Of a stretch of 64,000 nt of DNA, positions 13,873 through 39,750 are shown piece by piece (position 1 is the stretch's first letter; each line of letters starts with the position of its first letter). This DNA comes from a virus (Duplodnaviria; Caudoviricetes). The DNA lies in IMG/VR virus record IMGVR_UViG_3300031994_000022; one strand, given 5' to 3'. The position numbers were made by a program, and so were the translations under genes. The notes below the pieces were generated by a model. The model was not told the DNA's origin and made no database searches. It saw only the letters and a program-made list of their open reading frames with translations.

Positions 13873-15663
13873 TTACTTTGAAAATATTCCACCATATCTA
13901 GAAGATGACTTAGCAGCCTTCTTAGATGGATTACCAAATAGTTTCATACCAACCTGTTTCTTCTCAGGTTCTTCAGATGAAAACTCAATTTTATTGTGCT
14001 TTGAATACTCAAGCAACATTTTGTCAAGCTTATCAGTTAGCTCATCCGTAGAGAGATCGAAGTAATTCTCTCGCTTTGATAACTCGACAAATTCCTTGGT
14101 TTCTCGAATATTCTTCCAATCCTCTGACTGAAGAATTTCCTTCTTTGCTGGTTCGGACTCGTACTTTGCAAGTTTTTCCTCAATAGCAGAGTAGCTAGTT
14201 TTCATCTGTTCAAGAGCATTCTTCTCATCAGCAGATAAGAACGAAACAAATGTTTCAATTCTATCACCCTTAAGTGAATATACATCTTTCTTTACAGAAT
14301 AAGACTGACGATAGTGCTTATTATTCCACCAATCGTGGAATTCAACTATCTTAGTTTCTTCAATAACATCACAATCATACCATGCACCATCAGACTCACC
14401 GTAAGTATCATTTACAAGAATTGTAAGAGCATTCAGCTTTTCCTTGAGTGATACTGAATAATCTTTCTTTGCACCCTTAACAGACACAGTATAATTTACG
14501 GAATAGTAATTAACATCTTCTGGATCTTCGGTATTATCATCAGGTTCATCAGGTTGTTCTTCTTCCTCAGATTGTACTTCAGGAGTATCGTCTTTATCAT
14601 CAGGATTCTCATCATCGTCCTGATTTTCCTTGTCATCATCATCCTTGTCGCCATCCTCATCGTCATCGTCTTGATCCTCATCGTCAACAATTACCGAATC
14701 ATCATCTTCAGACTTCTTACGCTTTTTCGGACTATCTTCAAAGTTTTCTGTAGAAGGAGTGAAATGCTCTGCAAATACTGCTTCGAGTTCCTCATCTGAA
14801 AGTCCTTCGTACTCAAAATCAATTTCATCAATTGACTTTCCATATTGTTCTAAAAGCTTTTCAAACATTGGTTTTGGATTACCTCCTTCCTCTAGAATTT
14901 CGTTGTTTATATTAAGGTTATCTATTTTCTCGTTAAGAGCAGATAACATCTCAATAACTTTTTCATTCTGTGAGAATATACTATTATTCTCGACACTAAA
15001 GTCGGCAATTGAAATATTGCTTCCAACCATACCAGGCTTTACTTCTTCGCCTGTGTAACGATTCTCTTCAAGTATTGTGACTCCACTAAATCTAAACTTG
15101 TCTATACACAATACTTTCTCTTTAGAGTCATAAGATAATTCATCTACAAATAACTCTACACTCACAGACAATCTCTTTTCTCTTTCTATAATTTCTGCTG
15201 CTTTACTGTATGTTTTCCAAATAATACCAGTACCGTCAACATAAGTCTTATCCATATCTACATCATATACTAATTTAAGATCGGCTGATTCCGGTATACA
15301 GCCAACTGGGATTTCCTCATATACGGTTTCACCATCATCATTAACATACAACTCATGACTAGCAAAAACATCTTTCTCACCATTGTTATATATATATCCT
15401 AAGATTGGCATATTATACGCAGTAGGCAAAGCATTCTCCATAGCCTTTTCAGATATAAAACTTTGGTTGGCATTTTTCTCTGTGTGACAAAGTCTGATAG
15501 GACAATACATATTCAATTCATCATCTTCAGACTGATCATATGTAAACGGTTCATCTATATGAACTACAATGGTAGTGTCATTATCAGCAGAACTGAATTT
15601 TACATTCTTATTCTGAGTTACATAATAATTATATAAATCAGAGAGATATAAGAGTTTTTTCAC
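13873..15663 (-). CDS. prohead protease/scaffold protein
   Basis: LCHTEKNAN, PILGYI, LSVSVEL protease-like N-domain; acidic linker; coiled-coil C-terminus. Confidence 0.75.
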   Translation of the reverse strand: MKKLLYLSDLYNYYVTQNKNVKFSSADNDTTIVVHIDEPFTYDQSEDDELNMYCPIRLCHTEKNANQSFISEKAMENALPTAYNMPILGYIYNNGEKDVFASHELYVNDDGETVYEEIPVGCIPESADLKLVYDVDMDKTYVDGTGIIWKTYSKAAEIIEREKRLSVSVELFVDELSYDSKEKVLCIDKFRFSGVTILEENRYTGEEVKPGMVGSNISIADFSVENNSIFSQNEKVIEMLSALNEKIDNLNINNEILEEGGNPKPMFEKLLEQYGKSIDEIDFEYEGLSDEELEAVFAEHFTPSTENFEDSPKKRKKSEDDDSVIVDDEDQDDDDEDGDKDDDDKENQDDDENPDDKDDTPEVQSEEEEQPDEPDDNTEDPEDVNYYSVNYTVSVKGAKKDYSVSLKEKLNALTILVNDTYGESDGAWYDCDVIEETKIVEFHDWWNNKHYRQSYSVKKDVYSLKGDRIETFVSFLSADEKNALEQMKTSYSAIEEKLAKYESEPAKKEILQSEDWKNIRETKEFVELSKRENYFDLSTDELTDKLDKMLLEYSKHNKIEFSSEEPEKKQVGMKLFGNPSKKAAKSSSRYGGIFSK

Positions 15664-15691
15664 TTCTCCATATTCCTCCTTTCTTTAAAAA

Positions 15692-15730
15692 TAACAAAAC
15701 GCAGAGCAGACCTTTTACAATCTACTCTGC
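15692..15730 (-). terminator. terminator-like hairpin closing the RNA array
   Basis: GCAGAGTAGA/TCTGCTCTGC stem followed by GTTTTGTTATTTTT. Confidence 0.55.
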
Positions 15731-15763
15731 AACCGTAATCAATACGGTTCTCTCCTTATATGT

Positions 15764-15806
15764 GCCTCCATTGGACACTTCATTGAGAGGTGTGGAGGCT
15801 TCTGTC
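15764..15806 (-). ncRNA. abiF-like RNA hairpin, copy B
   Basis: GACAGAA-GCCTCCA-CACCTCTCAATGAAGTGTCCAA-TGGAGGC; covaries with copy A. Confidence 0.6.
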
Positions 15807-15811
15807 AAAAT

Positions 15812-15858
15812 GACCCGACGTGGTACGCATCAAAGTGAGAGGCGTGTCGGGTTCTGTC
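15812..15858 (-). ncRNA. abiF-like RNA hairpin, copy A
   Basis: GACAGAA-CCCGAC-ACGCCTCTCACTTTGATGCGTACCAC-GTCGGG; resembles the abiF motif as recalled. Confidence 0.7.
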
Positions 15859-16353
15859 CAATATAAAAGGAGCTGTGTGTACCAGCTCCAATTCCTCGCA
15901 ATATTGGCAGTAATTACAGTTTACTGCCGATAATTCCTTAGCGAGTCTCGGCGTTTTTCTTTTCAGATATCTGCATCCTAGTCAGGGTAAGACTGCCGCA
16001 GCTTACGGTAGAACCTCCACGTAAGAACCTGACAAACCTTACGCTTCAACGGTTAAACTTAACTAGTGAGTAATATTCTAACCGTTACTCGCGGTACGAA
16101 AATGTCACGAAAACTATATACTATTCGTGACACAATCTCAGCTCCTCCTACCAATAGGATAGGTGAGTAAGTAGATAATGCGTAGTCCCGGTGTTAACAC
16201 ATAACACTTACCACGACGGAGGCAGGATACTACGACTTACAATATCTGTCAGAGCGTACTCCACATGGAAGTCTGACAATCCCATGCTTCACAGCAGATC
16301 CGCCAATACCCAAGGGCGAAGAGTAGTTTAAGTGCTTAACTCAGGCACAAACA

Positions 16354-16396
16354 TTTTCAAACCGACCTTTTATATTGCGGTAATCGGTCTCCGCAT
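16354..16396 (-). ncRNA. CptI-like pseudoknot
   Basis: TGCGG-AGACCGATTA-CCGCA-ATATAAAA-GGTCGG-TTTGAAAA. Confidence 0.7.
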
Positions 16397-16610
16397 GGGT
16401 TCTGTTTATTTTGCAACTTTCATTTGATGGCTTATGGTAAGTTGCCACCTTTATACATCTCCACATTCACCGCATACCATCACGGATTCCGCTTCATAGA
16501 CATCTACACTTAGGCGGTGAACACCATGTATTGGCTCTGTTCTCGCTCCACTCTTGTGTCTTTACCACAGATTTAAAGTCTACACCTACGCTACTGACTA
16601 CCAATATTTT

Positions 16611-16644
16611 GAATCGCTAGAAGTTTTAAGTCGTCCTAAAGACC
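16611..16644 (-). ncRNA. ToxI-like pseudoknot, copy 1
   Basis: GGTC-TTTAGGAC-GACT-TAAAAC-TTCTAG; 30/34 identical to 16911-16944. Confidence 0.65.
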
Positions 16645-16910
16645 ATATGGTTATCCGATATTGCAGTGTTTTACAGATTCGTCATCCAACCATATGAACA
16701 CCTCTGGAAACGTGCCTCCTCGGAATAGGGCTACACCAGTACCATTACGCACCTACGTGTTTAGGTCTTTTCGTTGACCAAATATTAAAGCGACTCGGCG
16801 CGGATCTTCACCGCCATCGTGCTAGTTATAGGGAATTCGCCTCGGTTACCAACCTTAACGCCGCTTATAATAATCCACTTTTTATTTGGAAGCGATGGGA
16901 CACTTCGTTT

Positions 16911-16944
16911 GAATCACTAGGAGTTTTAGGTCATCCTAAAGACC
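16911..16944 (-). ncRNA. ToxI-like pseudoknot, copy 2
   Basis: GGTC-TTTAGGAT-GACC-TAAAAC-TCCTAG. Confidence 0.65.
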
Positions 16945-17361
16945 GCTCGTAATGGGTTTAATGTCTCCATACCGACAAAAAGAACGGCATTGATGCTGGC
17001 ATCGCTACCGCTGAAAAACCTTTGGCTTTTCGTTCATAATCCACCGTTGTAGCATAGGTCGTGGGACACCTACCGCACCGTTCTTGGAATTTCTTTGTTG
17101 TGGGAGTTACCCACTTCATTATTTTTCCTCACACTTCGCCGCCACACTAAATGACTATAAAGGTTCTCACTTGAATTTTAAGGTGGACGAGATATTCCAC
17201 CAGTAGAGTTATTGCGCATTACGGTAACTTCGCTTACCTCGGTACTGTCGGTTAAGGGAGCCGACTCCTATTGGATAGCTGACAACATATCACCTATTGC
17301 CGAGCTTTCATGGTATATTTAACGCCCCCCACTAGGGAAAGAGGTGCTATCCGTTGTCCTC

Positions 17362-17507
17362 TTATATTTTACTGCCCTATCAAAACCATCATAGGACTCT
17401 TCACCCGGTCAATTTTTATTTTACCGACGAGTCAGAACCGTCACTCGTCATCTTCGCTCGGTCAGTTTTTATATTACCGACGAGTCAGAACCGTCACTCG
17501 TCTCATC
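17362..17507 (-). repeat. three tandem 52-53 nt structured repeats
   Basis: hairpins at 17479-17502, 17426-17449, 17374-17397; loop GAYGGTTYTG conserved, stem covaries. Confidence 0.85.
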
Positions 17508-17567
17508 TATTATGGAATTATTTTTTGTTTTATTTGGTTGATTTGGATCATTTGCGTAATACCATTT

Positions 17568-17595
17568 AAAAAAGACGACAAATTAACGTCGTCTT
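17568..17595 (-). terminator. intrinsic terminator after portal
   Basis: AAGACGAC/GTCGTCTT stem plus T-run. Confidence 0.7.
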
Positions 17596-17621
17596 AAAAA
17601 TATTGTTTTATTATCTAAAAG

Positions 17622-19178
17622 TTATCCTTCGCTCCTTGCCCTAGAACGTTCACCTGAATCAGATAAATCTCCTTCATCTACTTGTGGTCTTCCTTGTCCA
17701 ATTTCAGAAGTATATCCATCTTCAGTACCACTTTGGGTATAAGATGAATTTAGAGGACGAAGTTTATCACTAAGACCTAATAATTCTTCTTCTACATAAT
17801 TCATACAGATAGTGTCTTTTTCACTAAATCCATTAAGAGTATTGATAGCTAACTTAGTTGGTAATCCATACTGACCAGACGAAAGTAGCTGTTCTCTATA
17901 GTCTGACTTTGTATATGTTGAAATTGGCATAAAACGTACTTTGCAGTCATCGGCACCCTCATAACTAAGCATCCTCATTACCCAAGATTGTATTTGTGGT
18001 AGAAGAGAAGAGATGGCAAATTCTGTGTTGGCAATGGTAGCCATCTTAAATGCATAAGTATTATTGATGGTAGCACCATTAAGTATTTCAGCACCACCAG
18101 CCGTATTTAGTACTTGCTCTGTAGCTTTAGCAACTTTAGTAGTATCAGTTGCTTTATCATCACCAAAGCTTATTTCATGCAATTGTCCAGGAACAATGGC
18201 AGTAGCTATATAATCCGGAATACTATCATTAAGCTTATCAAAATATGGTAATGAAAGATCCGGGTCGATTTTCCAATCGTCTATTCGCTTCGATCCGGTT
18301 ATGGTTTCTAATTCGTACCACAGAAGCTTGTATACGCTCGCAGCATCCCCCGCTGCTTGAATGTCCTCAAGGTCTGCAAGATTTATAATACTATTAAATA
18401 TACCGCTCCAGGGACTGACTATTACATCCAAATCTTCAATTCTAAACTTCATACAAACTTGATACTTAGAATCTATCAGTTGCCACTTTTCACCAGTGCT
18501 TTGATAATTTTTCCAAACATCTTCAAATACTTCTGGTATATATTCAATAAGTTCTTGTCTATTTCTTAGCCATGAGGCATCAAAAAAATAAGACAGATCA
18601 CCTGTCATAAATTTTCCAGCTATCTTACAATAATCAGCTGGTAATTGCATATGAAATACCCCAGTATCATCATGAATATAGATACCATAATAAATATCTT
18701 GAACAAAACAAGTAAATATTATTGGATAAAATTCCTGCTGTAATCTCATTATTGAAACTGCATCAAGAGTATTTTGATAAGATTTCATTATCTTATCAGC
18801 ATTATTTTCTTTGACTAAATCATATTTAGGAATAATGCTTCGACAATCTAAACAAAACATTTCACTAAAGAAATGAACAATCCTATAAAATACATGAGAC
18901 CTATACAGAAGGTACCAGGCTAACGCTCGCAAATTCTTTTCTTGAGATCCGATATTTTGTAAATATTGTCTTAATCTTTCTTTATCAAAAGTAGTAATTG
19001 TTTTATTATAAGTCTTACCAATATCTCTTAATTGTTTAAGCATCTTATCTTTATTTTCAGTAGCAAAATTTGTAACCATATCTAAACGGTCTTTATTTTT
19101 GCTATACCAATCTTTTATTTCAGCCACTGTCGGCTGTTTAGGTGCATTCGACACCTGTGTAGTCTTTGTTCGTGCCAA
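17622..19178 (-). CDS. portal protein
   Basis: 518 aa directly downstream of terminase; C-terminal SSYTQSG...GRP tail typical of SPbeta-like portals. Confidence 0.75.
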   Translation of the reverse strand: MARTKTTQVSNAPKQPTVAEIKDWYSKNKDRLDMVTNFATENKDKMLKQLRDIGKTYNKTITTFDKERLRQYLQNIGSQEKNLRALAWYLLYRSHVFYRIVHFFSEMFCLDCRSIIPKYDLVKENNADKIMKSYQNTLDAVSIMRLQQEFYPIIFTCFVQDIYYGIYIHDDTGVFHMQLPADYCKIAGKFMTGDLSYFFDASWLRNRQELIEYIPEVFEDVWKNYQSTGEKWQLIDSKYQVCMKFRIEDLDVIVSPWSGIFNSIINLADLEDIQAAGDAASVYKLLWYELETITGSKRIDDWKIDPDLSLPYFDKLNDSIPDYIATAIVPGQLHEISFGDDKATDTTKVAKATEQVLNTAGGAEILNGATINNTYAFKMATIANTEFAISSLLPQIQSWVMRMLSYEGADDCKVRFMPISTYTKSDYREQLLSSGQYGLPTKLAINTLNGFSEKDTICMNYVEEELLGLSDKLRPLNSSYTQSGTEDGYTSEIGQGRPQVDEGDLSDSGERSRARSEG

Positions 19179-22994: not shown

Positions 22995-23065
22995 TTGAAA
23001 ATGTAGGATTCGAACCTCGCCCCTACAGCCCAAGTGTAGTGTGCTACCATTACACCACATTCTCA
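22995..23065 (-). tRNA. tRNA-Pro(TGG)-like, imperfect T-stem
   Basis: GTGTAATGGTAGCAC D-arm; CTACA-CTTGGGC-TGTAG anticodon arm; GGTTCGAATCC. Confidence 0.7.
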
Positions 23066-39537: not shown

Positions 39538-39750
39538 ATGGCAATGTTTAAAGCAACCGCAGAAATTACGGTTTCTGTTGAGATAGCAGTTAACGCAGAT
39601 AATATTGAGGAAGCAAAAGAAAAGGTGGAGAGCGTAGAAGATATAGGATTCTACCTTGAGGGAATGCAGTTGAGTAACGGAGTTGAAATTGTAGGATGTG
39701 ACGAACCAAGTTGGTATGTTGAATACGATGGGTATGTGGATAAACATTAA
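39538..39750 (+). CDS. hypothetical protein (DpnD/PcfM-like pattern)
   Basis: VNADNIEEAKEKV. Confidence 0.7.
   Translation: MAMFKATAEITVSVEIAVNADNIEEAKEKVESVEDIGFYLEGMQLSNGVEIVGCDEPSWYVEYDGYVDKH

Follow-up and report, generated by a model that had tools for sequence, protein, structure and literature searches.

The window, a stretch of 64,000 nucleotides, belongs to an IMG/VR virus record of 141.8 kb judged 95% complete. On its minus strand, the genes of the portal and a scaffold-like protein are separated by a mosaic island whose last module is a pair of abiF-type hairpins. The features are listed below from 5' to 3' on that strand, each with its basis.

22996-23064, minus strand: tRNA gene between the endolysin and packaging genes (Rfam, 51.8 bits)
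17622-19178, minus strand: portal protein, upstream gene (phrog_2739, E 4e-79)
15664-17621, minus strand: mosaic island of about 1.96 kb (1958 nt; no ORF longer than 100 aa)
17351-17507, minus strand: three tandem TenpI-like units of about 53 nt each, the third diverged (BLAST)
16409-16502, minus strand: second, weaker drum-like RNA (Rfam, 26.4 bits, cut-off 43)
15946-16054, minus strand: drum-like RNA (Rfam, 37.9 bits, cut-off 43)
15869-15889, minus strand: terminator-like hairpin with U-tract (7 pairs, 5 of them G-C; tail TTTTATATTG)
15852-15858, minus strand: 5' flank GACAGAA of unit 1 (read from sequence)
15813-15851, minus strand: abiF-type hairpin 1 (Rfam abiF, model R1, AbiF-linked copies)
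15800-15812, minus strand: 13-nt linker of the UCAUUUUGACAGAA type (read from sequence)
15764-15799, minus strand: abiF-type hairpin 2 (Rfam abiF, model R1, compensatory changes in the related phage L004)
15731-15749, minus strand: small hairpin AACCGUA-UUGAU-UACGGUU, AACCGUAUUGAUUACGGUU (fold, invariant alignment columns)
15690-15731, minus strand: intrinsic terminator, 13-pair stem and U-rich tail (terminator search, fold)
13873-15663, minus strand: scaffold-like protein, 596 aa, with an acidic middle (phrog_3313)

Further neighbours are the large terminase and an endolysin composed of Amidase_2 and choline or cell-wall-binding repeats. The phage portal shares no more than 29% identity with the portals of large Bacillota siphoviruses, SPbeta-like ones included. 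From this distant kinship, the Bacillota-type endolysin, and the 91-94% nucleotide matches of island modules we infer that the host is a gut or rumen representative of Firmicutes, probably Lachnospiraceae-like.

Structure and family of the hairpin pair

The two minus-strand units had been described in an earlier note as GACAGAA followed by a hairpin, twice, and the sequence matches this description exactly. Hairpin 1 consists of an outer stem CCCGAC/GUCGGG, an inner stem (A)CGC/GCG(U), a 3' bulge ACCAC, and a loop formed by CUCUCA and seven more nucleotides. Hairpin 2 has an outer stem GCCUCC/GGAGGC, an inner stem ACAC/GUGU, a bulge CCAA, and a loop of CUCUCA with five more nucleotides. The loop start (G/A)CCUCUCA is common to both. 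Thus the core residues are indeed shared while the stems differ in a compensatory way (CCCGAC/GUCGGG against GCCUCC/GGAGGC; ACGC/GCGU against ACAC/GUGU). The GACAGAA flank of unit 2 (15806-15800) forms the final 7 nt of the 13-nt linker. When a 121-nt stretch was folded, both hairpins were formed (-35.5 kcal/mol, z = -2.8), and none of 200 shuffled controls folded equally well.

The terminator at 15869-15889 closes the drum-like module before it, and hairpin 1 follows immediately downstream. The strong terminator at 15690-15731 closes the two-hairpin unit and is followed by the ribosome-binding site and GTG start of the scaffold-like gene. With a terminator on either side, the hairpin pair makes up a separate module some 180 nt long. 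A scan for sigma-70 promoters predicted none between the two terminators, so the unit would be transcribed by read-through or from an unrecognised phage promoter. The phage promoter candidates TTATATTGRACAG and TTTATATTG were rejected, as they showed no meaningful enrichment. The small hairpin at 15731-15749, with AAGGAGAGA just 5' of AACCGUAUUGAUUACGGUU, is unchanged in all five related phages (5/5), unlike the flanking terminator and hairpins.

The earlier note had named the abiF RNA motif (Rfam RF03085, AbiFr) and suggested a search with its Rfam model. This search produced matches to hairpin 1 (32.1 bits, E 4e-5 in the 142-kb genome) and hairpin 2 (19.2 bits), 13 nt apart, but both scores are below the gathering cut-off of 37 bits. 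At gathering thresholds the tRNA is the sole Rfam match in the window, and both the abiF and the drum matches need the E-value mode. We also used a covariance model, R1, trained on 22 distinct RNAs directly preceding Abi_2/AbiF genes. In 149 kb searched, this model, whose training loci came from a search with a pattern derived from the present motif, gave 51.4 bits (E 4.6e-11) for hairpin 1 and 41.1 bits (E 3e-8) for hairpin 2. No other abiF-type hairpins were found in the whole genome; an R1 match of 19 bits at 39547-39579 has no conserved loop and looks like chance.

Both stems of hairpin 1, its bulge and its GCCUCUCA loop start are the same as in three AbiF-linked RNAs (L092, L207, L175), among others; such leaders occur in Lachnospiraceae and other Clostridia. 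The sole difference from such exact-stem RNAs is the apical segment, 7 nt instead of 5 nt, which might affect binding. It costs 16 bits in the Rfam abiF score: the three exact-stem copies score 48 bits. Copies with exactly the stems and bulge of hairpin 1 precede AbiF at L175, L207, L212, L221, L223 and L239 and at the viral loci L036 and L092. An RNA of the CCCAAC type (the L065 sequence), which precedes AbiF in eight bacterial genomes, scores 36.7 bits with the Rfam model, and thus the 37-bit cut-off is no sharp boundary.

In an alignment of 68 distinct homologous hairpins, 87.8% of paired cells are complementary, compared to 23-36% when the partner columns are slid, and double compensatory changes are observed at 9 of 10 pairs. 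In the flank, ACAG is invariant and the next two A's are conserved in at least 90% of sequences. The features of the family, namely an outer helix of 6 bp and an inner helix of 3-4 bp, the 3' bulge, and the GCCUCUCA loop start, are all present and supported by covariation; the position directly upstream of an Abi_2 (PF07751) gene is not. The pair is carried by a phage, resembles an RNA antitoxin of the host and comes without the toxin. Judged by sequence and predicted structure, the hairpins are very probably toxin-less abiF-type RNA, and the identity given in the note was right: hairpin 1 is nearly identical to RNAs standing directly before Abi_2 genes in Clostridia, that is, homologues upstream of Abi-family genes exist, and the R1 scores of both hairpins are high.

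The same note had stated that no abiF gene accompanies the hairpins, and this holds for the whole record. Six-frame translation of the 95%-complete genome contains no match to Pfam Abi_2, and the best hit of a custom AbiF profile, run with --max over the genome, has E 0.06 and falls on a 46-aa fragment. The profile was seeded on the protein that follows the RNA at L092 (Pfam Abi_2, E 1e-52). The 596-aa scaffold-like product downstream of the hairpins is neither an Abi nor a HEPN protein. AbiF, TenpN, PBECR4 and DUF3800 are all absent from the proteins encoded by the phage, which therefore has no complete type III toxin-antitoxin system of these kinds.

Related phages and bacterial AbiF loci

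The pair is retained at the same site in four related phages (L003, L004, L006, L007; portals 82-97% identical) and is absent from four others (L008-L011; portals 56-81% identical), so it is an accessory element. Compensatory stem changes separate the window from L003, L004 and L006. In the relatives, the outer stem of hairpin 1, CCCGAC/GUCGGG, is replaced by CUCACC/GGUGAG or ACACC/GGUGU. In hairpin 2 of L004, ACAC/GUGU is replaced by AUAC/GUAU and GCCUCC/GGAGGC by GUCUCC/GGAGAC. These changes, together with the nine of ten covarying pairs in the family at large, demonstrate that the hairpin structure is under selection. The portal and scaffold genes are 1958 nt apart in the present phage, 1520 nt in L003, 915 nt in L006 and L007, 660 nt in L008, and about zero in L010, and the blocks of the island are present or absent piecemeal. 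Two of the related genomes (G003, G004) have an extra solitary abiF-type hairpin at another intergenic site (L014:1494-1544, and the same place in L016; R1 50.4 bits), flanked by the same AACAGAA and UUAUUUUGA.

The collections of bacterial and viral sequences were scanned with the 21-base pattern ACAGAA-N7-9-GCCTCTCAACGATGC. An initial loose pattern with 14 specified bases had produced 118 stretches, 27 of which passed the hairpin filter; they were mostly due to chance, and the pattern was replaced. The final pattern was found in at least 120 bacterial species genomes and 93 viral contigs; as it was derived from the motif, the counts cover one abiF subfamily only. The bacterial matches listed are mostly from Lachnospiraceae, Oscillospiraceae, and other Clostridia of rumen and gut. 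Hairpin 1 is matched in about 20 of 401 Lachnospiraceae genomes.

According to the AbiF profile, an AbiF gene lies directly downstream of the RNA in 72 of 115 bacterial instances among the matches listed, and in 6 of 85 uncut viral ones. The AbiF loci have a standard layout: TATAAT, 6-7 nt, (A)ACAGAA, one hairpin, UCWUUUAAUUU, a ribosome-binding site, and an abiF gene of about 290-305 aa. Of the 115 bacterial instances (from loci L140-L259, among the matches listed), 41 have no AbiF in the 2-8 kb of sequence covered; 29 of these have a -10 box and 12 have none. Such loci could have decayed, or could be orphans carried by prophages.

The other 79 viral copies, with no AbiF in the stretch of sequence covered, form 14 clusters by flanking sequence, with unrelated adjoining genes in different clusters. 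Of 76 AbiF-linked copies, 74 are preceded by a -10 box, but no such box precedes any of the 79 viral orphans. However, (A)ACAGAA is kept in the orphans. This retention despite the loss of the -10 box indicates that the flank is part of the RNA and not of the promoter. Tandem pairs were observed in phage orphans only, whereas AbiF-linked loci of this subfamily have single hairpins.

The largest cluster contains 60 loci, among them L043, L052, L067 and L084. They come from phages with genomes of 100-140 kb, for the most part from IMG/VR sample 3300045988. These loci have two abiF-type hairpins and a strong terminator, and in the 51 readable ones the downstream gene encodes a conserved protein of 376-393 aa without a Pfam family. 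This protein was rejected as a candidate AbiF (hhalign probability 1.4%; the RxxxxH motif is absent in the one sequence checked). A copy of the hairpin-2 type, ACACCUCUC...GUGUCCAA, with the outer stem GGCCCC/GGGGCC, was found in a Lachnospiraceae chromosome (L356:2048-2093, minus strand) between prophage tail-protein genes, with no AbiF nearby.

A proposed antitoxin decoy

[quoted passage not shown] A Prevotellaceae AbiF complex is PDB 8VZ6, as cited in PMC12737573. AbiF has also been tied to the origins of Cas13, so that the antitoxin role, the HEPN RNase and the link to Cas13 named in the earlier note all agree with the literature (PMC12373285, PMC12737573, PMC12165695). The phage copies have the same two-stem hairpin, 3' bulge and GCCUCUCA loop start as AbiFr. 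They differ in that neither an AbiF gene nor a host-type promoter is present, the hairpins come as a tandem pair where the cognate Clostridia loci have a single one, the apical loop of hairpin 1 is longer by 2 nt, and the Rfam scores are below the cut-off.

An antitoxin RNA carried without its AbiF gene is most likely a decoy disarming the AbiF defence. Near-identity to the AbiF leaders of the host points to a host target, and the published action of the AbiF RNA antitoxin in trans, together with precedents of mimicry, makes this the best reading. The statement as a whole, namely that the hairpins are toxin-less phage copies of AbiFr acting as antitoxin decoys against host AbiF, deserves in our judgement slightly better than even credence.

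The mechanism might be as follows. The phage would transcribe the two-hairpin unit of about 180 nt during infection, and, like RCd22 in C. difficile, the RNA would act in trans by binding the AbiF of the host. It would then hold the AbiF RNase blocked once the host's own supply of antitoxin fails, so that abortive infection would not fire. The conserved ACAGAA flank may be a part of the recognised or processed RNA, and the tandem arrangement may provide a higher dose or allow one RNA to contact the two subunits of an AbiF dimer. All of these steps, from transcription to binding and neutralisation, are proposed. On the other hand, the genes surrounding the island are late structural ones, and their timing could be too late for a counter-defence.

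One of the closest known arrangements is that of RCd22 from the phi027 prophage of C. difficile, which neutralises AbiF in trans by direct binding and whose two motifs were modelled as one RNA spanning the AbiF dimer (PMC12373285). RCd22 is a short RNA in which a Rho-independent terminator follows two abiF motifs; the phage has two motifs 13 nt apart and a predicted terminator (15731-15700), which may lie on one transcript. RCd22 is co-transcribed with its own abiF and represses it, whereas the phage has no abiF. The linker is 13 nt in the phage and 19 nt in RCd22 (PMC12373285), and the phage has an extra invariant hairpin before the terminator.

One alternative, which was the conclusion of the earlier note, is that the two diverged hairpins titrate different host AbiFs and thus represent two specificities. 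Indeed, they differ in the stems, one inner pair and the bulge (ACCAC and CCAA), and the prophage copy of the hairpin-2 type with another outer stem indicates that this type persists independently. However, compensatory stem swaps left the antitoxin activity of RCd22 unchanged (PMC12373285), and the two motifs of RCd22, which serve one AbiF dimer, are themselves unlike each other. No AbiF gene was found beside an RNA of the hairpin-2 type, the one bacterial match inspected being among tail genes. The claim is therefore unsupported and we consider it unlikely; an RCd22-like layout, with one RNA spanning the AbiF dimer, would explain the tandem pair at least as well.

Another possibility, improbable in our view, is that the RNA is an antitoxin or regulator of an unrecognised partner encoded elsewhere in the phage, the system being complete but split. 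Much of the phage proteome is without known function, and the group of 100-140-kb phages always has two hairpins and a terminator before the 376-393-aa protein. However, that protein has no likeness to AbiF, the scaffold-like gene downstream of the present pair is kept by relatives that have no hairpins, and orphan copies adjoin unrelated genes across the 14 clusters. The near-identity to host AbiF leaders again argues for a target in the host.

It is very unlikely that the pair is a decaying relic of a captured AbiF cassette that has lost its toxin gene, so that the RNA is functionless and disappearing. Toxin loss does happen, as seen from the AbiF-less bacterial instances, 29 of which retain a promoter, and hairpin 2 of L003 looks partly degraded. 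On the other hand, both helices are preserved by compensatory changes although the flanks of the relatives are only 73-82% identical. The tandem duplication is a layout confined to phage orphans, toxin-less copies occur in fourteen other viral flank clusters, and the viral orphans have all lost the host promoter while the RNA is still intact.

Finally, a cis-acting element of the late operon (a processing site, stabiliser or insulator) merely resembling abiF would fit the position between two terminators and right before a highly expressed structural gene, as well as the U-rich tracts preceding several orphan copies in other phages, but it is highly improbable, since the loop and bulge, needless in a generic hairpin, are identical to those of the AbiF-bound RNA, a terminator stands between the unit and the downstream gene, relatives keep the scaffold gene without the unit, and the downstream genes of the orphan copies differ.

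Action as a decoy for host AbiF has several precedents. Phage phiTE escapes ToxIN by means of pseudo-ToxI, which mimics the antitoxin RNA (PMC3594212, PMC5449768). Both pseudo-ToxI and the present hairpins are toxin-less phage look-alikes of a type III antitoxin, inhibition being demonstrated in the former case and inferred in the latter. The toxins are ToxN and the HEPN protein AbiF, respectively, and the RNA folds differ. The hairpins are native, nearly identical to the host RNA and adjacent to orphan RNAs of other families, whereas pseudo-ToxI was observed as expanded escape mutants.

[quoted passage not shown] What they would have in common with the hairpin pair is a phage RNA mimicking or occupying the RNA-binding site of a defence effector. 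The targets of Racrs are Cas proteins, and since AbiF is a proposed ancestor of Cas13, the logic is parallel. The phage pair copies the AbiF ncRNA, to which the sk1 hairpin bears no resemblance.

Apart from the sk1 cos hairpin, few means by which phages evade AbiF are known. The locus suggests a simple route, in which the antitoxin RNA is carried and the toxin dropped. At least 15 lineages of phages show this arrangement, and the present pair is a clear case of it, with near-identity to the host RNA, tandem copies and the host promoter lost. If this is true, AbiF would be one more of the few defences that RNA mimicry is known to overcome, and sequence alone could serve to predict how phages of gut and rumen viromes counter defences and which hosts they infect.

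The RNA family, the toxin-antitoxin system, and the principle of mimicry are already known. Relative to the literature searched, three observations are new: native tandem, promoter-less and toxin-less copies of the AbiF antitoxin recurring across phage lineages; the near-identity of phage copies to host leader RNAs; and the housing of abiF copies together with orphan TenpI and drum-like RNAs. An abiF match of 51.6 bits has been annotated in cyanophage S-CREM1, and there are three phage entries in Rfam (PMC9964418). These are annotations only, and neither the missing toxin nor a decoy role is mentioned there (PMC9964418).

The surrounding RNA island

A blastn search of the island against a collection of isolated phages gave no match, and among 401 Lachnospiraceae genomes, 69 were matched. 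The TenpI-like units match tandem repeats of about 20 Lachnospiraceae genomes with identities of up to 94%. In these bacteria, the repeats lie downstream of a promoter; after them come a terminator and a gene encoding a protein of 163-178 aa, a type III toxin of the TenpIN family (NCBIfam NF047358, E 1e-48 to 1e-52). The TenpN-like proteins had no match in PDB sequences (phmmer), Pfam or PADLOC. The units at 17351-17507 resemble TenpI antitoxin repeats, and as the phage has no TenpN, they would be orphans. Some genomes, e.g. G022, contain matches to both the TenpI block and hairpin 1. No BLAST match in the 401 genomes was obtained for the segment 16354-16403.

In Lachnospiraceae, drum RNAs are adjacent to genes of PBECR4 nucleases (PF18813; Barnase-EndoU-ColicinE5/D-RelE-like) at four of five loci inspected (L330-L333). 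The match of the second drum-like copy, L349, also has an adjacent PBECR4 gene. A literature search for PBECR4 and drum gave no useful paper. This co-localisation suggests that PBECR4 toxins have the drum RNA as their partner or antitoxin; if so, the two constitute an uncharacterised RNA-guarded toxin system.

With the TenpI and drum-like modules and the abiF pair, the array contains toxin-less RNAs of no fewer than three kinds, and the pair adjoins orphan RNAs of two other families of RNase toxins. Each of the three kinds adjoins an RNase toxin gene in the likely host clade. One possibility is that the island is a modular, swappable, RNA-only anti-defence array directed against the TenpN, PBECR4 and AbiF RNases of Lachnospiraceae and containing further modules without an assignment, with the corollary that drum is the PBECR4 antitoxin. 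Such an array would forestall several abortive-infection systems based on RNases simultaneously. We regard this as tentative, its chances being just short of even.

Two other segments of the island have bacterial counterparts. The 81-nt block at 17273-17353 (minus strand) has 94% identity to a stretch of a Lachnospiraceae genome (L338) that directly precedes the gene of an AbiLi/AriA-like ATPase (PADLOC AbiLi, E 3e-72), and may be another defence-linked RNA. A palindromic element, GUCACGAA...UUCGUGAC, at 16099-16135 (minus strand) has 86-94% matches on both strands of several Lachnospiraceae chromosomes.
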